Of a DNA stretch of 12,448 nt, positions 3,258 through 12,448 are shown piece by piece (within the stretch, counting starts at the first letter, position 1; each line of letters opens with the position of its first letter). The notes beneath the pieces were generated by a model. The model saw only the letters and a list, made by a program, of their open reading frames with translations, was not told the DNA's origin and ran no database searches. This stretch comes from a virus (taxonomy: Duplodnaviria; Heunggongvirae; Uroviricota; Caudoviricetes). A program made the translations under genes and the position numbers. The stretch lies in the IMG/VR virus record IMGVR_UViG_2648501165_000019. One strand, written 5' to 3'.

Positions 3258-3267
3258 NNNNNNNNNN

Positions 3268-3296: not shown

Positions 3297-3710
3297 TCAG
3301 ATGGTTTTCAGTATGCGATCGATGTCGCCGTCATCGCCCTGGTTTCTGCCATCGTATGCCATGCCAGCTGATACGGCTTGCGGGCTGTGCATGTCCATAA
3401 AGTTTTCAAAGGCTGCGGTAAGTTCCGGCGCAACCTTCGGACGTTCCTGCTCTATGGTCATGCTAAGGATGCTTTTAGCCGTACCAACATCGATACAAGG
3501 CACGTTTGCCATTGCACGCAACAGCGGCTGATAGTCTTTATGCTCATGAAGCGCCATAATCGCATCAGCGCGCGGCTTGTCCTGCTCTTCCAGTTTGTTT
3601 AGTTGATATACGGCCTCATAGGTTGATAAACCTCTGTCAGCCATTGCCCGCGCTTCGACTTTAAATTTACTCGCCAGCGGTAGCGTCATGATGCTTTCAT
3701 TCGTTGCCAT
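3297..3710 (-). CDS. Hypothetical protein (137 aa) downstream of the decoration gene
   Basis: ATG at 3710-3708 with GGGGG Shine-Dalgarno-like run 4 nt upstream; acidic C-terminal region. No family recognised. Confidence 0.6.
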   Translation of the reverse strand: MATNESIMTLPLASKFKVEARAMADRGLSTYEAVYQLNKLEEQDKPRADAIMALHEHKDYQPLLRAMANVPCIDVGTAKSILSMTIEQERPKVAPELTAAFENFMDMHSPQAVSAGMAYDGRNQGDDGDIDRILKTI

Positions 3711-5934: not shown

Positions 5935-6207
5935 TTAGCTGTCCTGGTAATTGCGCCATATTTCATCACCAGCACCATCTATACCCATTTCGGCATAAGT
6001 GCGATCGACTGCCTTTTTCAGGTCTCCGAAATTATCCGGCGGCTCCGGTGCCCTCTGTGCCTTCCTTGAACATTCCAGCCGTCGCATCGTGATGTGATGC
6101 CGTTCCTTGTCTGTCTCCACCAGCTGCATGACTTCACCCCATCGCGCCGCCGCCCTCCGGTAAAAGCCTTTCGCCTCCAGTTCCTCCGCTATGCGGTCAT
6201 GTACCAT
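5935..6207 (-). CDS. Small putative transcriptional activator, PerC-like (90 aa from ATG at 6207)
   Basis: The longer frame to 6327 starts with GTG and overlaps the SSB gene. The ATG at 6207 follows the SSB stop with a GGGGGTG ribosome-binding site. Motif AEELEAKGFYRRAAARWGEVM resembles the signature I recall for PerC/Pch regulators; this is from memory and of moderate strength. Confidence 0.45.
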   Translation of the reverse strand: MVHDRIAEELEAKGFYRRAAARWGEVMQLVETDKERHHITMRRLECSRKAQRAPEPPDNFGDLKKAVDRTYAEMGIDGAGDEIWRNYQDS

Positions 6208-6217
6208 CGTCACCCCC

Positions 6218-6628
6218 TCAGAACGAAATATCATCACCGTAAGGGTCATCGCCTCCCGCTGGTGGCTGATTACCCTGTGTGCCTGTGGTTTTGCGTCTGT
6301 TCCCGCCTGGACGTGCCGCGCGGGCACTGATTACGCTGTCTGCGATAACCTGCCAGCCCTGCCGCGTTTCTCCGTTCTGTCCGGTCCACTGGCTTACCTG
6401 CATCGTGCCGGATACGCTGGCAACATCGCCTTTTTGATGTTTAGCCAGGAAGTCGGCCTGTTTGCCAAATGCGATGACCGATAACCATAACGTCGCCTGT
6501 CCGTCCTGTGCCTGGCTGCATGGCAAAGATACCGCCATACGCGCCAGCGTCATCGGTGTGCCCTTGCTGGTCTGTTTTACCTGCGGGTCGTCCACCAGCC
6601 GCCCGTAAGCGGCTATCTGTGCCGTCAT
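6218..6628 (-). CDS. Single-stranded DNA-binding protein (136 aa)
   Basis: OB-fold region parallels E. coli SSB (WLSVIAFGKQADFLAKHQKGDVASVSGTMQVSQWTGQNGETRQGWQVIA vs [50 protein letters not shown]). Gly/Pro-rich linker and acidic C-terminal tail DDPYGDDISF (E. coli SSB ends DDDIPF). ATGA start/stop overlap with the upstream gene. Confidence 0.85.
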   Translation of the reverse strand: MTAQIAAYGRLVDDPQVKQTSKGTPMTLARMAVSLPCSQAQDGQATLWLSVIAFGKQADFLAKHQKGDVASVSGTMQVSQWTGQNGETRQGWQVIADSVISARAARPGGNRRKTTGTQGNQPPAGGDDPYGDDISF

Positions 6629-7078: not shown

Positions 7079-8477
7079 ATAGCGGCGCTACATCATCCCC
7101 ATCGATACGAATAACCCCATCTTTTTCCAGCTTGTACAGCCAGCGCCGGAAGTTTTTCATTTCATACCCCAGCTTTTTCATGTCATCACGTAACAGCGGG
7201 ATCGTGCACTTGTCGCCGTTCTGTGTGCGTGAACGGATGCCCCCCCATAGCGCGGTATGGTTTTTCGTCTTGTTCCCTGCCTCCTCGATGCGCTCCAGTT
7301 CAACAGGAGGGCGCGGATCATCCACCACCACCAGCGACGTGATTAATTCACCGTCAGCGTCGGTAAAAAGCTCCACCACGCGTAAGTCATATGCGGCTTC
7401 TTTGAGTTCCTCCGCGTCCTTCATTTTGGTGCATGAGATAACCAGCGCTTCGCTTCCTGCGTCCTCCCTGCGTATCCGGTATTCAGCATCCAGCGAAGCA
7501 CGAAATGCACTGGAACCGCGCGCGCCTTTCGTCTCATCCTTGCCGGAATGGTGAACCACCAGCACCGTGGCCCCTGTGCGTCGTTTCAGTTCGTCACAAC
7601 CACGGATAAACGCCCCCATATCACGGGAATCATTTTCATCATTCCCACCAAAGCAACGCGCCAGCGTATCCAGAATAATCATGCGTACAGGTTTACCCGT
7701 TTCCCGCTCCACCTGACGGGCAGCGATAACCATTTCATCAACATCAAGCGGGGCAGCCGGAAAGATGGGGCGGTTTACCAGATACAGATTTTTCACCTGC
7801 TCATCGTGCACAACCTCCCAGGCTTTTACACGACGCGGAACACCTATACCGCCTTCACCAACCACATAGAGAACCGCACCATGTGCAACCCTGCGGCCTC
7901 CCCACTGGCGACCAGTGGCAACATGGCACGCCCACGATCCGGCAAGGAATGATTTATAGGACCCGCTAGCCCCGTATATGCTGCATAGCGATACCGCCGG
8001 AATAATCCCCTTAACCACGTAATCCAGTTGCGTGTCGTATCCGGTAGATCCAACGCTCATCGGTAGCGTGGTTTTTCGCTGGTGGTTTTTTTCTTCCGCC
8101 GGCTCTTTCCCGCGCACCCGTTCCAGGTATTCGCGCCAGTTCTCCCGCATATGGCTGTGCATCCCTTCGGGGTAATAATTCGCATCAGTTACACCCGCCG
8201 CCGCCAGCTTGTGCGCAATGGCATTAATATTTGATGGCCTGATGTGGCCTGCCTTGTACAGCCGGACACAATAGCGCCCCTCGTCGATGATTCTCAGGTC
8301 TGCCAGTTCATCCAGTTGATCATCAGCCAGCACAACGGGAGGCACATTATCGCCAGCCAGTCGCCCGTCCTGTTCCTGCCACTGTTTCGCATGTGCCCAG
8401 GCATCACTACCCGCAAAAATAATGACTTCGGTCATCTTGTCGTAAGGCTGTTTTTTTAAGTTCGGTGCGCTTTTCAT
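7077..8477 (-). CDS. Replication protein with RecA-like (RepA/DnaB-type) ATPase domain, putative helicase/initiator (466 aa)
   Basis: Walker A GASGSYKS (aa 169-176), Walker B-like MIILDTLARCFGGNDEND, and VLVVHHSGK motif typical of RepA-like replicative ATPases. N-terminal region of about 160 aa unassigned. AGGGG ribosome-binding site 6 nt upstream; ATGA overlap with the upstream gene. Confidence 0.7.
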   Translation of the reverse strand: MKSAPNLKKQPYDKMTEVIIFAGSDAWAHAKQWQEQDGRLAGDNVPPVVLADDQLDELADLRIIDEGRYCVRLYKAGHIRPSNINAIAHKLAAAGVTDANYYPEGMHSHMRENWREYLERVRGKEPAEEKNHQRKTTLPMSVGSTGYDTQLDYVVKGIIPAVSLCSIYGASGSYKSFLAGSWACHVATGRQWGGRRVAHGAVLYVVGEGGIGVPRRVKAWEVVHDEQVKNLYLVNRPIFPAAPLDVDEMVIAARQVERETGKPVRMIILDTLARCFGGNDENDSRDMGAFIRGCDELKRRTGATVLVVHHSGKDETKGARGSSAFRASLDAEYRIRREDAGSEALVISCTKMKDAEELKEAAYDLRVVELFTDADGELITSLVVVDDPRPPVELERIEEAGNKTKNHTALWGGIRSRTQNGDKCTIPLLRDDMKKLGYEMKNFRRWLYKLEKDGVIRIDGDDVAPL

Positions 8478-8773
8478 TTCTTGCCCCTGAATCCGTTAAC
8501 CATGGTTTTCAGCTTCTGGATGTTTGCCCGTGCCCTGGCGTTGCTGGTGGGCACGTTATGCGGCGCGGTCTGTACCAGAGAAAAATCACGCCGGAACTGA
8601 TAAACAGGCATCACGCAATCATATTCGTAACCTTCACGGCGGTAGGTTACGCGCCGTTCTTCCACGCCCTTAATCATTACCGTGCCGCCGTACTGGTCGC
8701 GGTAAATATCACCGCGCGTAAATTTAGGGTGAGTGTTGCCACTGGCAGTTAAGCCAGAATATTTAAGTTTCAT
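8474..8773 (-). CDS. Hypothetical protein (99 aa)
   Basis: ATG with GGAGAA ribosome-binding site 8 nt upstream; translationally coupled to the helicase gene. No family recognised. Confidence 0.5.
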   Translation of the reverse strand: MKLKYSGLTASGNTHPKFTRGDIYRDQYGGTVMIKGVEERRVTYRREGYEYDCVMPVYQFRRDFSLVQTAPHNVPTSNARARANIQKLKTMVNGFRGKK

Positions 8774-8778
8774 TATTT

Positions 8779-9012
8779 TTATTCTCCGGTGTGCTGTTCT
8801 TTATATCTGTCGTGCAATAGATCTATTTCTTGCAGTTCCATTATTACAGGCTCAAGAAGCGTTATTAATGCCGTGGCAATTCTTGATTTTTGTTTGTCGC
8901 GTTCATTGTCGCCAAGTGTTTCAAGCCATATGCGCAATATTTCCATCATGTTTTCACTGTGAGAAAGTGCAAGAAATGCGCGGTCTATTGTTTGGTGGTA
9001 AATATCACGCAT
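8779..9012 (-). CDS. Hypothetical protein (77 aa)
   Basis: ATG at 9012 with GAGGA ribosome-binding site; overlaps the upstream gene by 8 nt. No family recognised. Confidence 0.5.
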   Translation of the reverse strand: MRDIYHQTIDRAFLALSHSENMMEILRIWLETLGDNERDKQKSRIATALITLLEPVIMELQEIDLLHDRYKEQHTGE

Positions 9013-9469
9013 GGCTTACATCCTCAGGAAATTTTCTTCTATAACGCGCCTCTGCCACATATTCCGCATAATCGGCGGCGATATTCAGTACATCAAGCCC
9101 CGTTGATTTATATTCTCTCGTGGAAAGTAAGAAAAAAGCCGCTCTAATAAGTTCTGGCATTGACGAAAGCGCATCAGCCGCATCATCAGGAACGCCGGAA
9201 AATTCCTGTTTCAGGGAATTAAAACGATCATCACGCATAACCCCCCCATTTTCACAATCAGCAATCAGGATAGCTTTGGCCTCATTCAGCGCCGTATCAG
9301 CACTAAATTGCATGACAGCCAGTGAGTGAGGAACGAAAGCACCGGCATATTCTGTTTCGCTGGTGGCGTGCTTATGTGCCCTGTCCGCGATAACAGAAAT
9401 ATCAATCAGCGCGTGCATCAGCGTTTTGATGGCTTCGGCGGCTGCGTCCGGTGTGGTTTTATTGTGCAT
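9005..9469 (-). CDS. Hypothetical protein (154 aa)
   Basis: ATG at 9469 with AGGGGA ribosome-binding site 6 nt upstream; overlapping gene chain. No family recognised. Confidence 0.55.
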   Translation of the reverse strand: MHNKTTPDAAAEAIKTLMHALIDISVIADRAHKHATSETEYAGAFVPHSLAVMQFSADTALNEAKAILIADCENGGVMRDDRFNSLKQEFSGVPDDAADALSSMPELIRAAFFLLSTREYKSTGLDVLNIAADYAEYVAEARYRRKFPEDVSHA

Positions 9470-9671
9470 AAAGCATCCCCTGAATATTCGTGTTAATCAT
9501 TCCGGCACGTTTTGTGATTTCCTGTAATGATTCCCTTGTGGCGACAATTGCTTCATCTGGTAAGTGGTAATTACACACCACGCGACCTTTATCCACATTG
9601 ACCAGTAGCTGCCCTGTGAATTTCTCACGAAACTGAATGCGGTTAAGGTCAGTAAGTGACAGATTAATCAT
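9459..9671 (-). CDS. Hypothetical protein (70 aa from ATG at 9671)
   Basis: Strong ribosome-binding site AGGAGGT 5 nt upstream of the internal ATG; the longer frame to 9713 lacks one. Overlaps the upstream gene by 8 nt. Confidence 0.5.
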   Translation of the reverse strand: MINLSLTDLNRIQFREKFTGQLLVNVDKGRVVCNYHLPDEAIVATRESLQEITKRAGMINTNIQGMLYAQ

Positions 9672-9861
9672 GGCGCACCTCCTGACGAATACGGGCGGCA
9701 AATACAGCAACACAACCGGACGGGCAACGGTTACGCGCTTCGCGTTCCGTCCAGGCGGTTACGTGGATGATTTGAGATTCTCCGGCACTCAGTGCCAGAA
9801 AACGCCACACAAAGGCCGTTTGTGTGTGTACAAGGTGTGGTATATGATTTACGGCAACCAT
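9664..9861 (-). CDS. Hypothetical small protein (65 aa), first gene of the leftward early operon
   Basis: ATG at 9861 preceded by AGGAG with a 5-nt spacer. It is the 3' part of a long spurious frame (9664-10608) in the ORF track. Contains a CPSGC motif. No family recognised. Confidence 0.45.
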   Translation of the reverse strand: MVAVNHIPHLVHTQTAFVWRFLALSAGESQIIHVTAWTEREARNRCPSGCVAVFAARIRQEVRHD

Positions 9862-9923
9862 AACGGCTCCTAGTTTACGTTGTTGGTTAGACGCCCCGTA
9901 TGTGTTCCCAGCACTGCGGGGCG

Positions 9924-9994
9924 TTGATTTTTGTGTAATGGCAAGTACAATGGTAATTACCATGTAGGTATAGTAATAAAGGGTAATTACCATG
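9924..9994 (+). promoter_or_regulatory. Divergent control region: sigma70-like promoter for the RHH gene with two palindromic operators
   Basis: -35 TTGATT (9924-9929), 16-bp spacer, -10 TACAAT (9946-9951). Operator 1 ATGGTAATTACCAT (9950-9963, perfect 14-bp palindrome) overlaps the -10 and start site. Operator 2 GGTAATTACC (9982-9991) overlaps the RHH start codon. Centre-to-centre spacing is 30 bp. Confidence 0.6.
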
Positions 9995-10165
9995 TCAACA
10001 CCATTAGAAAAACGTTCGCCTCCATACCAAATGCGATTACCGGAAGACTTCAGAGCGCAGCTAGAAGAAGCAGCTAAGGCCGATGGCGACACATCTTTAG
10101 CCACTTGGATTAAACGCGTTCTCCGCAAAGAATTACAGCAACGCGGCATAGAACCCAAAGGATAA
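9992..10165 (+). CDS. Ribbon-helix-helix (Arc/Mnt-like) DNA-binding regulator, 57 aa; not in the supplied ORF track because it is under 60 aa
   Basis: Translation MSTPLEKRSPPYQMRLPEDFRAQLEEAAKADGDTSLATWIKRVLRKELQQRGIEPKG. The segment YQMRLPEDFRAQLEEAAKADGDTSLATWIKRVL fits the Arc-type beta-strand/helix/helix pattern. Divergent from the minus-strand operon and overlapped by the palindromic operators. Confidence 0.65.
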   Translation: MSTPLEKRSPPYQMRLPEDFRAQLEEAAKADGDTSLATWIKRVLRKELQQRGIEPKG

Positions 10166-10207
10166 AAACTATCAGCGCCGTGGTGTGAGGTATTACGGCG
10201 CATTGCT

Positions 10208-10396
10208 ATGCAGGACAACACAATGACCGATAAAGAATTGACCAAAACATTATCACCGGCACGGAAAAGACGGCGCAGAAAGATAGAGCATGAATCAGAA
10301 AGATTCGCGCCATGTGCTTTTGCCCTTGAGCAATTCCTTAAAGAGTACAGGGAAACGCGCCCATTGCAGGTATGGCAACGAACTGAACCAGACTGA
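10208..10396 (+). CDS. Possible small basic protein (62 aa) downstream of the RHH gene; weak call
   Basis: ORF lies between the RHH gene and the plus-strand terminator at 10490-10520. No convincing ribosome-binding site; Arg/Lys-rich centre. Confidence 0.25.
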   Translation: MQDNTMTDKELTKTLSPARKRRRRKIEHESERFAPCAFALEQFLKEYRETRPLQVWQRTEPD

Positions 10397-10489
10397 TAGC
10401 ATTGCCCACCAGCCTGATAGCGGCTATCATCCCCGTGCTTATGTTTGGGATCATATACACATAAGGCGCAGCGGGTTATCTGTTCAGAA

Positions 10490-10520
10490 AGGCGGCTCCA
10501 TTTCGGGGCCGCTTTTTTTA
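10490..10520 (+). terminator. Rho-independent terminator ending the rightward RHH transcript
   Basis: GCGGCTCC, ATTTC loop, GGGGCCGC (8-bp stem with one G-U pair) followed by TTTTTTT. Confidence 0.6.
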
Positions 10521-10665
10521 TGCCTGAAAAACCCCAATTTTGTGGTTTTCCAGTCTCACCAGGGCGAACGAATCCCCGCCCACGTTCTGGCGTATATTCA
10601 ATCTTCATGGTTATAGCTCTGTGTTCAGATGATTGATGTGTGGCGGCTGTGTGCCGCCAGCGTGA

Positions 10666-10854
10666 TTAATGAACTGCCTTGCAGCTATCCTTCCAGGCCA
10701 GAACCTCGGATAAAGACCAGCCAACGGAACGACCGCCAAGTTTACGACGTGATGGGAATTGTCCGGCCTTTTCCAGGCGGTAGCGACACGTACGGCTAAG
10801 GCCGGTTAGTTTTTCGCATTCTTTTTCACGTATAAACCGATCAGTGCTTAACAC
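10666..10854 (-). CDS. alpA: AlpA-family transcriptional regulator / putative excision activator (62 aa)
   Basis: LTGLSRTCRYRLEKAGQFPSRRKLGGRSVGWSLSEVLAW matches the AlpA helix-turn-helix signature as recalled. The start codon is GTG (10854-10852) with an AAGGGGG ribosome-binding site 5 nt upstream. Same orientation as int, as in P4-like and PICI-type elements. Confidence 0.8.
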   Translation of the reverse strand: MLSTDRFIREKECEKLTGLSRTCRYRLEKAGQFPSRRKLGGRSVGWSLSEVLAWKDSCKAVH

Positions 10855-11218: not shown

Positions 11219-12448
11219 TTATTTTCTTCTGGCTACTGGTAGCGTGGTTACGTTTTCATGTGTTCCCGCCAGTATCCCTAACCGCTCCGTCCACATATCC
11301 AGCGCATTGCGTTTCGCATCCAGATAACGGGAATGATTATAAACTCGCTGCATTCCTGGCATCTGGTGGCCTGTAAGCTGCTCCACGACATGCGGATCAA
11401 CGCCTAAATCGTTCAGCATGGTTGTAAAGGTGCGCCGGATGTCATGCAGTGACCAGTGAGGGTGATTAAGCCTCCTGTGCGCTAATCTTCCATACTGCGA
11501 TACGCTGGCCTCCTGTTTCACTTCCCCCAGCAATAAGCCCGTGTGCCTGTTCTGCTCCACCAGCTGCGTGATGAACGGCAGTATTGCTTCCGGTATAGGC
11601 CGGAATATGGCTACCTTCGTTTTGCTGTGCTCCTTCGGAACGGTCCAGAGCATTTCGGTAAAATCCCACTCGCTGATCTCCGATAACCTCAGTTCTACCG
11701 TCCGGCATCCGAACACAATCAGGAGGCGGATTAACGCGATGTAGTAGGGGGAGAATATTTTTTTGTCCAGTGCCTGCAATAATTCGCCCAGTTCTTTGGT
11801 GCTTAAGACACGCTCGCTTATATCCGGTTTTTTCCCAACGTCCGCCACACTCATATCATCAAGAACGTTGCTGATTGCATAGCGCCGCCTCCGGCAGAAC
11901 TTAAGCGCCTGTTTGCACGTCTGTAGCAAGAATCCGGCAGTAACAGGCGTTCGCTTTGCCACCTGGTCAAAACAGGCCAGCCAGTGCCGTAGCTCGCATT
12001 TATCCAGCGGCATAGCACCAATGTGCTGTATTACGTGATTATTAAGGCGCTTTTTCAGGGCGGCATAATCCACGCGGTTTTCCTTTGCGTACGACTCAAG
12101 CCAGTAGGTGAGCGCATCGCCAACCGTTACCGGCTTTAACGCTTCCTGTACGGTGTAATTAAGCTCATGACGTGGATTTTTCCCCTCTGCCAGCCATGCG
12201 CGACACTGGGCGGCTTTTTCCCTGGCTGATTTCAGGCTCAGATCAGGATAATTTCCCAGCTTAATGCGTTCCGGTGGTGCCCCCCTTCCCGTTCCGGCCC
12301 TGTAAGTGAAATACCAGGTTAAAAGGCCACTGGTTGAATGCCTGACGCTCAGGTTTCCACCGTCATTAAGAAAGGCTGTTTTTTGGGCGGGTGTGCCGTT
12401 GATTTTCCTCAGCTGTGTATCGCTCAGTTTGTTAAGTGCTCTGCTCAT
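11219..12448 (-). CDS. int: Tyrosine recombinase, P4-type integrase (409 aa); start codon is the last three bases of the window
   Basis: C-terminal catalytic region with HDIRRTFTT, LTGH and RVYNHSRY (candidate catalytic Tyr). N-terminal region with the DGG...W.F.YR pattern of P4-type arm-binding domains. Confidence 0.9.
   Translation of the reverse strand: MSRALNKLSDTQLRKINGTPAQKTAFLNDGGNLSVRHSTSGLLTWYFTYRAGTGRGAPPERIKLGNYPDLSLKSAREKAAQCRAWLAEGKNPRHELNYTVQEALKPVTVGDALTYWLESYAKENRVDYAALKKRLNNHVIQHIGAMPLDKCELRHWLACFDQVAKRTPVTAGFLLQTCKQALKFCRRRRYAISNVLDDMSVADVGKKPDISERVLSTKELGELLQALDKKIFSPYYIALIRLLIVFGCRTVELRLSEISEWDFTEMLWTVPKEHSKTKVAIFRPIPEAILPFITQLVEQNRHTGLLLGEVKQEASVSQYGRLAHRRLNHPHWSLHDIRRTFTTMLNDLGVDPHVVEQLTGHQMPGMQRVYNHSRYLDAKRNALDMWTERLGILAGTHENVTTLPVARRK

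Follow-up and report, generated by a model that had tools for sequence, protein, structure and literature searches.

A putative exchangeable ribbon-helix-helix repressor module facing the early operon of a Gram-negative phage satellite

The window analysed here, the whole 12,448 bp stretch of the virus record IMGVR_UViG_2648501165_000019, is an integrated island located between phoQ (1-1461) and a tyrosine integrase gene (int; 11219-12448, minus strand). Based on its int-alpA pair, primase/helicase, late genes and attachment (att) site, the host element belongs to the EcCICFT073 type of Gram-negative phage-inducible chromosomal islands (PICIs). It occupies the same roxA/phoQ site as EcCICFT073, and the backbone of the two islands is colinear and 82-97% identical outside one cassette. 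In the window, this cassette carries a gene for an Arc-like ribbon-helix-helix (RHH) protein of 57 amino acids (aa) and two dyads, located between alpA and the leftward (minus-strand) operon. The best reading of these sequences is that the RHH protein would be an autoregulated repressor of the early leftward promoter, and that the gene and its sites would form an exchangeable, immunity-like module. We consider it likely that the protein binds the dyads and represses this promoter, while its being the principal quiescence determinant of the satellites is proposed only tentatively. The features of the cassette are as follows.

9950-9963, no strand assigned: O1, putative operator, a perfect 14-bp palindrome (ATGGTAATTACCAT) seen in the sequence
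9982-9991, no strand assigned: O2, putative operator, a perfect 10-bp palindrome (GGTAATTACC) seen in the sequence
9992-10165, plus strand: Arc-like RHH protein, 57 aa (MSTPLEKRSPPYQMRLPEDFRAQLEEAAKADGDTSLATWIKRVLRKELQQRGIEPKG), ATG start, identified from its open reading frame (ORF), homologues, alignment, PHROG 228 and an AlphaFold2 (AF2) model
9970-9998, minus strand: P_L, predicted early leftward promoter, with TTGACA (9998-9993), a 17-nt spacer and TACTAT (9975-9970), scoring 10/12
9924-9951, plus strand: P_rhh, predicted promoter of the RHH gene, with TTGATT (9924-9929), a 16-nt spacer and TACAAT (9946-9951), scoring 9/12

The two palindromes had been pointed out in a preliminary description of this DNA, and they are the only places in the 12,448 bp where the GGTAATTACC 10-mer occurs exactly. 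When up to two mismatches were allowed, 14 matches were found against 4.75 expected, a number reached in none of 200 shuffles. The two sites have a 14-nt direct repeat in common, GGTAATTACCATGT (9951-9964 and 9982-9995), and they are spaced by ~31 bp, which is about three helical turns. O2 sits between the Shine-Dalgarno (SD) sequence and the ATG of the RHH gene, within the spacer of P_L. It had been suggested to cover the start codon, and this is true of the extended repeat, whose second copy includes the ATG, but not of the O2 core, which only abuts it. There is also an operator core with one mismatch, GGTAATTACA, at 9566-9575, inside an 84-aa ORF ~390 bp into the leftward operon; a single copy of this kind is about as many as chance would give.

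P_L did not appear in the preliminary description, although it is the stronger of the two promoters in the promoter scan. Its -35 box is inside codons 1-3 of the RHH gene (ATG TCA A), which may be the reason for the strong conservation of the residues 'MS'. The dyads bracket its -10 box, with O2 in the spacer and O1 over the +1 that is predicted near 9963. P_rhh points towards P_L and has its predicted start near 9958, so that O1 overlaps the predicted start sites of both. The placement of O1 over the -10 box and start of the RHH promoter, already proposed, was confirmed, the overlap being with the last 2 nt of the -10 box and with the predicted start. With face-to-face promoters and predicted starts at ~9958 (plus) and ~9963 (minus), each transcript crosses the other promoter, and occupancy of the dyads should therefore block P_L and, via O1, limit RHH synthesis. 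Among 56 distinct loci, a perfect TTGACA was present at the same offset in 43, and P_L reached at least 10/12 in 40. The end of the P_rhh -10 box was at the same relative position in 28 of the 56, with scores of mostly 7-8/12.

The dyads were compared across 60 loci from distinct species, to which further loci were added by exact-protein look-up. Two dyads were present at fixed offsets in almost all loci (~50 distinct), with centres at about -92 and -62/-59 nt from codon 20 and with O1 and O2 27-34 bp apart. The dyad sequence differed between classes of the RHH protein, as defined by its N-terminal arm and strand.

RSP[QP][YF]QMRL: core GGTAATTACC at both sites, with the O1 variants GGTCATTACC and GGTCGTTACC
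RSPQFPMRL: core GGTATATACC at both sites
KTDQYQ[IL]RL: core TGTAATTACA at both sites
KS[QT]QYQ[IL]RL, in Pasteurellaceae: core [AT]GTAATTACA at both sites
GNPPFQFRL: GTGT[AC]ATTACAC at O1, with O2 degenerate or mis-picked

When compared with the O1 region of the same locus, the O2 core of a locus matched at 8.84 of 10 positions, against 6.74 of 10 for foreign cores, and the own core was the better one in 44 of 49 loci. This comparison was used in place of a best-palindrome picker, which sometimes took the wrong dyad. Changes at the dyad centre (AATT to ATAT) appear to track strand positions 12 and 13, and changes of the outer bases (G to T) appear to track arm residues 8-10. By analogy with Arc, such a pairing would be expected if the strand touches the middle of the dyad and the arm touches its flanks. 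We infer from these sequences that the dyads are operators of the RHH protein.

Further evidence came from the exchange of the whole cassette between islands, for which positions 9930-10158 of the window were compared with L071:10473-10760 and L074:2616-2936. The window and the island L074 are 95% identical up to 9929 and 91% identical from 10159, and there is no alignable sequence in between. The swapped segment (9930-10158) comprises the operators, the promoters and the regulator, and its sharp breakpoints are at the end of a hairpin, described below, and at the stop codon of the regulator. In L074 and many other islands, the slot contains a 65-aa DUF3950 protein with three TGTGCGCACA dyads in the same layout. 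Compared with CFT073, the window is 97% identical in the region of ORF2 (the ORF downstream of the RHH gene), 88% across alpA-int and 82% over 8112-9464, and is without similarity over 9465-10172. The CFT073 slot contains a 59-aa protein of the YlcI/YnfO family with two GTGGGCCACACCT repeats, one in the spacer and one at the +1 of a leftward promoter consisting of TTGACG, an 18-nt spacer and TATAGT. At least three interchangeable cassettes are present in one slot of Escherichia coli PICIs, encoding the Arc-like (57 aa), YlcI/YnfO (59 aa) or DUF3950 (65 aa) protein. That a regulator and its sites move as a unit is, as far as sequence comparison can tell, the signature of an immunity-type specificity module, as with the immunity regions of lambdoid phages.

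The same RHH class and the same dyads were also found in the P4-like satellite L069, which has psu, ogr/delta, an alpha-type primase and a different int, whereas EcCICFT073, with alpA and int similar to those of the window, has different dyads. Therefore, the operators go with the small protein, independently of AlpA, Int and the replication genes. In a Pasteurella element resembling capsid-forming PICIs, the RHH gene is located between alpA and an operon with a D5-type primase.

The palindromes could instead be the sites of another factor, such as AlpA, the integrase/Xis or a host nucleoid protein, with the RHH protein binding elsewhere or nowhere. Their core GTAATTAC is AT-rich, like many IHF- or Fis-type sites. 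This explanation is scarcely credible, as the dyads of the window and EcCICFT073 are wholly different despite 88% identity across alpA-int, the P4-like element has the same dyads with an unrelated int and primase and the same RHH class, variation in both dyads goes along with that in the RHH arm and strand, and no further exact copies of the dyads are located near int or alpA.

Two other loci of this kind were observed. In an O111 island (L068:5259-6503), two regulator modules are present in tandem; a 101-aa YlcI/YnfO protein adjoins the Icd-like gene and, further to the right, there are a 57-aa RHH protein, its dyads and a 67-aa ORF, as if the immunity region had recombined or been duplicated. 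In Erwinia (L065:7594-8171), a degraded remnant has kept only the RHH gene and a small divergent ORF, with toxin-antitoxin cargo (RelB/ParE and HipBA) on its flanks; the same protein recurs on ~97 contigs.

The 57-aa ORF, which had been proposed to be an Arc-like gene overlooked by ORF calling, proved to be a conserved gene with an RHH signature. A search of 5.8 billion proteins returned 93 homologues, nearly all of exactly 57 aa (some of 54-64 aa), from Escherichia, Salmonella, Enterobacter, Yersinia, Serratia, Xenorhabdus, Photorhabdus, Pantoea, Pectobacterium, Gilliamella, Pasteurella, Aeromonas and Oceanimonas. The family is compact, with 37 cluster representatives at E<=1e-3 among 1.84 billion, and a homologue is encoded in only 4 of 50,697 phage records. 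The RHH allele of the window is present in satellites of at least 454 of 5,426 complete E. coli genomes, including O157:H7. The alignment contains 17 invariant residues, including the whole of LRKEL, RG and P55, and the C-terminal tail RGIEPKG is invariant. In 61 gap-free nucleotide copies, diversity at the three codon positions of the RHH plus frame was 0.244, 0.131 and 0.558, respectively, with position 2 the most conserved, and the frame was open in all 61 loci.

A 314-aa minus-strand ORF (9664-10608) is antisense to the RHH gene, ORF2 and their terminator. In RefSeq/PGAP annotations of O55:H7 CB9615 and O157, the 57-aa gene is omitted and the upstream part of this minus-strand ORF is called as an 'Icd-like pseudogene', by which the real plus-strand genes are hidden. 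The minus-strand ORF was rejected as coding upstream of 9861, as it contains stops in 13 of the 61 related loci. That it is open is a chance effect of sharing its third codon positions with the RHH frame. The RHH peptide was not found in the accessible part of the O157:H7 Sakai Ribo-seq small-gene catalogue, in which the region was probably not counted as 'intergenic' (PMC5597208).

The 57-aa protein appears to be an Arc-like RHH protein. It matched PHROG 228, 'Arc-like repressor', over residues 6-55 (E=1.5e-6). By hhalign, it matched P22 Arc (E=0.002), with RSPQYQMRLpEEf aligned to Arc KMPQFNLRWPREV and PQYQMRLP in register with PQFNLRWP. The predicted secondary structure has an N-terminal arm and a beta-strand at about residues 8-16, followed by helices at 18-31 and 36-50, and the AF2 model (predicted local distance difference test score, pLDDT, 78) has the same two helices after an extended N-terminus. 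The topology of an RHH protein (strand, helix A and helix B over ~45 residues) was recovered with AF2 and Foldseek, and ~45 of the top 50 Foldseek neighbours in the PDB were RHH proteins, with root-mean-square deviations of ~1-2 A over 35-38 residues. These neighbours included AmrZ, CopA_SO, ORF56, Arc, MazE9, NikR, ParG, CopG and PutA. A PDB sequence search with the family profile matched only designed helical-repeat proteins, which were taken as spurious. Against the YlcI/YnfO family NF041551, the RHH protein scored 18.7 bits (E=0.0014), below the cut-off of 30, and hhalign against the YlcI/YnfO-type member of EcCICFT073 gave E=0.2.

Downstream of the RHH gene, there are two features that bear on whether it could belong to a toxin-antitoxin pair.

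10208-10396, plus strand: ORF2, basic protein, PHROG 21027 (unknown function), likely start at M6 (10223), giving ~57 aa
10486-10518, plus strand: intrinsic terminator of the RHH-ORF2 transcript, -21.7 kcal/mol, z=-4.0, followed by U7

It had been suggested as an alternative that the RHH protein and ORF2 make up a toxin-antitoxin pair, with the RHH protein as the antitoxin. Such a pair would be of type II, and the palindromes would be its autoregulatory operator. The two small ORFs are co-directional, 42 nt apart and followed by one common terminator, RHH antitoxins are among the structural neighbours in Foldseek, and some databases have auto-named homologues 'HicB family antitoxin'. However, this alternative did not hold. 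ORF2 homologues were found only in E. coli and Shigella, and none was beside the RHH gene at the 60 loci outside E. coli, where clustering of downstream ORFs gave no conserved co-directional partner and the next gene was usually a convergent alpA, int or helix-turn-helix (HTH) gene. ORF2, which is outside the swapped cassette, is kept at 96% identity behind all three types of regulator, including that of EcCICFT073, and so it also follows the unrelated YlcI/YnfO and DUF3950 proteins. The RHH fold fills about residues 9-50 of the 57, leaving a 7-residue tail after helix B and no toxin-binding domain, and ORF2 had no match to any toxin family in Pfam, NCBIfam and PHROG searches. A toxin-antitoxin pair is therefore very improbable, and ORF2 would be co-transcribed with the RHH gene in E. 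coli only, as judged from the sequences.

On the other side of the dyads, the leftward operon begins with a gene for an Icd-like protein, which is preceded by a conserved hairpin.

9664-9861, minus strand: Icd-like small protein, 65 aa, the first gene of the leftward operon (NCBIfam NF033153, E=5.2e-18; CB9615 annotation)
9890-9935, plus strand: terminator-like hairpin (9890-9925) with a U-tract, -24.9 kcal/mol, z=-4.3
9820-9848, plus strand: putative antisense-RNA promoter, with TTGTGT (9820-9825), a 17-nt spacer and TATGAT (9843-9848)

The operon contains, besides the Icd-like gene, small ORFs and genes for DUF4222, a RepA-family helicase, a single-stranded DNA-binding protein (SSB), PerC, the major capsid protein, a decoration protein and terS. 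In the hairpin, 88.5% of cells across 14 pairs were paired, compared with 35-56% in slid controls, and compensatory changes were found in 10 of the 14 pairs. There were 61 G.U cells and 9 A.C cells, and this excess indicates that the hairpin works in the rightward (plus) RNA. The element is also present in EcCICFT073, and it marks the left boundary of the cassette (9929). The putative promoter is under the threshold of the promoter scan in the window; a TAnnnT motif is positionally conserved, ending 35-36 nt before an invariant TGGTYAGA in many loci and in EcCICFT073. A cis-antisense RNA of ~78 nt, starting near 9855 and covering both the SD sequence and the start codon of the Icd-like gene, is probably produced, if the predicted promoter is used. 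When the window was scanned against Rfam over its full length, no family matched at E<=1, C4, CI and IsrK included, and the hairpin is therefore not a recognised RNA of these types. If the antisense RNA is real, there would be two locks on the early operon. A minus-strand hairpin within the Icd-like ORF (9826-9806) was considered as an attenuator and dropped, as it was not conserved in other loci.

Another possibility is that the main job of the RHH protein is to silence a toxic, Icd-like division inhibitor. The RHH protein, the antisense RNA and the Icd-like protein would then serve the island as a module for addiction or stabilisation, and any control of the remaining operon would be incidental. 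The Icd-like gene comes first behind P_L, a conserved antisense-RNA-like element covers its ribosome-binding site, and in the degraded Erwinia remnant the RHH gene and the small divergent ORF alone survive among toxin-antitoxin cargo. However, the toxicity of the Icd-like protein is presumed only, and the whole replication/packaging operon is behind the same promoter. In the swap between the window and L074, moreover, the regulator was replaced while the Icd-like gene and the hairpin stayed (95%), and therefore the RHH protein is matched to its operators and not to Icd. An addiction module of this kind is quite unlikely.

For the preferred reading, in which the RHH protein is an autoregulated repressor of P_L, the following mechanism can be proposed. 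An RHH dimer, which in the Arc/MetJ superfamily places a two-stranded sheet in the major groove of palindromic or pseudo-palindromic DNA, would bind each of the dyads O1 and O2, and their occupancy would shut off the Icd-like/replication/packaging operon behind P_L, keeping the satellite quiescent. As O1 lies over the -10 box and start of the weaker P_rhh, the repressor would also limit its own synthesis. The way in which repression is relieved is more speculative. One possible source of transcription is the gene to the right.

10666-10854, minus strand: alpA (Pfam PF05930, E=5.4e-17), converging on the RHH gene

AlpA is the activator in Gram-negative PICIs, and its expression is triggered by the helper phage (PMC6092414). 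Transcription driven by AlpA from the right, antisense to the RHH gene, could silence RHH and clear the operators. Read leftward from alpA, the structure at 10486-10518 is much weaker (-12.3 kcal/mol, z=-1.5); across loci, the terminator between the RHH gene and alpA, which was looked at for such read-through, gave a mixed pattern. Alternatively, a helper-phage protein could titrate the RHH protein, and it is speculated that the invariant RGIEPKG tail is a candidate surface for interaction with such a protein.

Several points weigh against the repressor reading. EcCICFT073 is the prototype Gram-negative PICI, AlpA is needed for its induction and AlpA overexpression alone is sufficient (PMC6092414), and therefore a repressor is not the sole determinant. 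All promoters and transcript starts are predictions; P_rhh, a weak promoter (7-9/12), is little conserved in the TGTAATTACA class, which makes autoregulation less secure. The protein and its operators are adjacent and co-inherited, so linkage could give part of the covariation, and with the cruder best-palindrome permutation the concordance of O1 and O2 gave p ~0.06 on de-duplicated loci and ~0.0004 on all loci. For the fold, Pfam Arc (PF03869) scored 14.3 bits, below its gathering score of 20.4, Foldseek E-values were ~1 because the chain is so short, and the AF2 monomer model contains no beta-strand, as expected for a monomer. No binding, transcript or phenotype data for the RHH protein or its homologues were found in the openly accessible literature, and the same search found nothing on RHH, Arc, YlcI or DUF3950 regulators in PICIs or P4-like satellites. 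What remains of the preliminary description is an Arc-like RHH repressor with two operators, acting on the opposing early promoter and probably on its own, as suggested by the gene, the dyads, P_L and the swap as a unit, but not a 'master switch', as AlpA is the known inducer and the RHH protein would be at most one layer of control.

The arrangement can be compared with several known systems. In immI of phage P22, the operators are palindromes that extend over a strong promoter and over a weaker one in the opposite direction, and mnt faces the operon that it silences. The RHH protein resembles Arc and Mnt in its small size and fold, its beta-strand motif is in register with that of Arc, the RHH palindromes likewise lie over a strong and a weaker opposing promoter, and its gene faces the operon as that of Mnt does. 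It differs in having no significant pairwise identity to Arc and a sub-threshold Pfam Arc score, and in its two dyads of 10-14 bp, ~31 bp apart, in place of a single 21-bp operator. The operon begins with Icd-like and replication genes and not with an antirepressor, and the host element is a satellite and not a phage.

The second comparison is with Stl (Rpr) of Gram-positive PICIs, including the Staphylococcus aureus pathogenicity islands (SaPI). Stl is a large HTH protein. Its fold and sequence are unrelated to those of the RHH protein, and Gram-negative PICIs need the activator AlpA too. The likeness is in the layout, a regulator opposed to the excision/replication operon with sites in between and presumed silencing (PMC6092414). 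An opposed regulator with cis sites over the operon promoter was found in the window and in ~50 loci, in PICI, capsid-forming-PICI-like and P4-like contexts.

In P4-like satellites, the slot between the alpA/vis homologue and the Icd-like/alpha-primase operon is also that of the P4 CI and P1 C4 RNAs, by which expression of the early operon is blocked (PMC10111431). Here too, a structured small RNA adjoins the Icd-like start; in contrast to these systems, the predicted effector is a protein repressor and the adjacent RNA is predicted to be cis-antisense. The YlcI/YnfO (NF041551) and DUF3950 proteins have the same slot, the same promoter/operator geometry and a short strand followed by two helices, although their sequence relation to the RHH protein is at or below the detection limit and they have repeats of their own (GTGGGCCACACCT and TGTGCGCACA, respectively).

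CopG of pMV158 and ORF56 of pRN1 are similar to the RHH protein in size and fold, and they repress a replication operon. CopG shares a transcript with repB and has a single pseudo-symmetric element as its site, whereas the RHH gene is opposed to its operon and has two dyads. With the same binding and the same repression of P_L, the RHH protein could act by CopG-like feedback on the replication operon after induction, setting copy number or timing and not quiescence. The regulated operon encodes a RepA-family helicase, a primase and SSB, copy-control RHH proteins of the CopG and ORF56 type are close structural neighbours, and the documented trigger is AlpA and not loss of a repressor. However, copy-control RHH genes are normally the first in the rep operon that they repress. 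Here, the RHH gene is read towards the operon from a promoter of its own, as is the gene of a maintenance repressor like P22 Mnt, and the imm-like exchange of cassettes points to a need for specificity between elements that share a cell. A role in copy control is rather improbable.

Apart from the cassette, the island contains a gene for a PerC-family regulator (5935-6327, minus strand). A PerC homologue of the PICI EcCIMP1 has been reported to repress expression of the locus of enterocyte effacement (LEE) (PMC11773190), and the gene in the island may be relevant for virulence regulation in the O55/O157 lineage. There are masked runs of N at 1637-1649 (13 bases), just past phoQ near the end of the island, and at 3258-3267 (10 bases), 5' to a 137-aa minus-strand ORF (3297-3710).

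Gram-negative PICIs have been described as 'transcribed unidirectionally and rightward', and why Gram-positive and Gram-negative islands differ in their induction 'is a mystery' (PMC6092414). Later surveys list zones for integration, Bro, replication and late functions and RNA immunity, and describe no RHH protein (PMC10111431; PMC11773190). We tentatively propose that the RHH, YlcI/YnfO and DUF3950 cassettes could provide the quiescence (or 'immunity') repressor so far lacking in Gram-negative satellites, namely in PICIs, capsid-forming PICIs and some P4-like elements. The cassette would be a freely exchangeable module that sets heteroimmunity between satellites in one cell. With the antisense RNA, it would form a two-layer lock, to be opened by helper phages through AlpA antisense read-through or through a dedicated anti-repressor. 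The prototype EcCICFT073 carries an analogous cassette of the YlcI/YnfO type. The molecular type, an Arc-like repressor with operators, is ordinary; its context is less so, as the sequences suggest an unrecognised, exchangeable repressor layer in well-studied satellites. A systematic annotation error, the bogus minus-strand pseudogene, is also corrected. If the proposal is true, these islands could no longer be described as unidirectionally transcribed and purely activator-controlled, satellite induction would need derepression besides AlpA, and the swappable cassettes would define satellite immunity groups.

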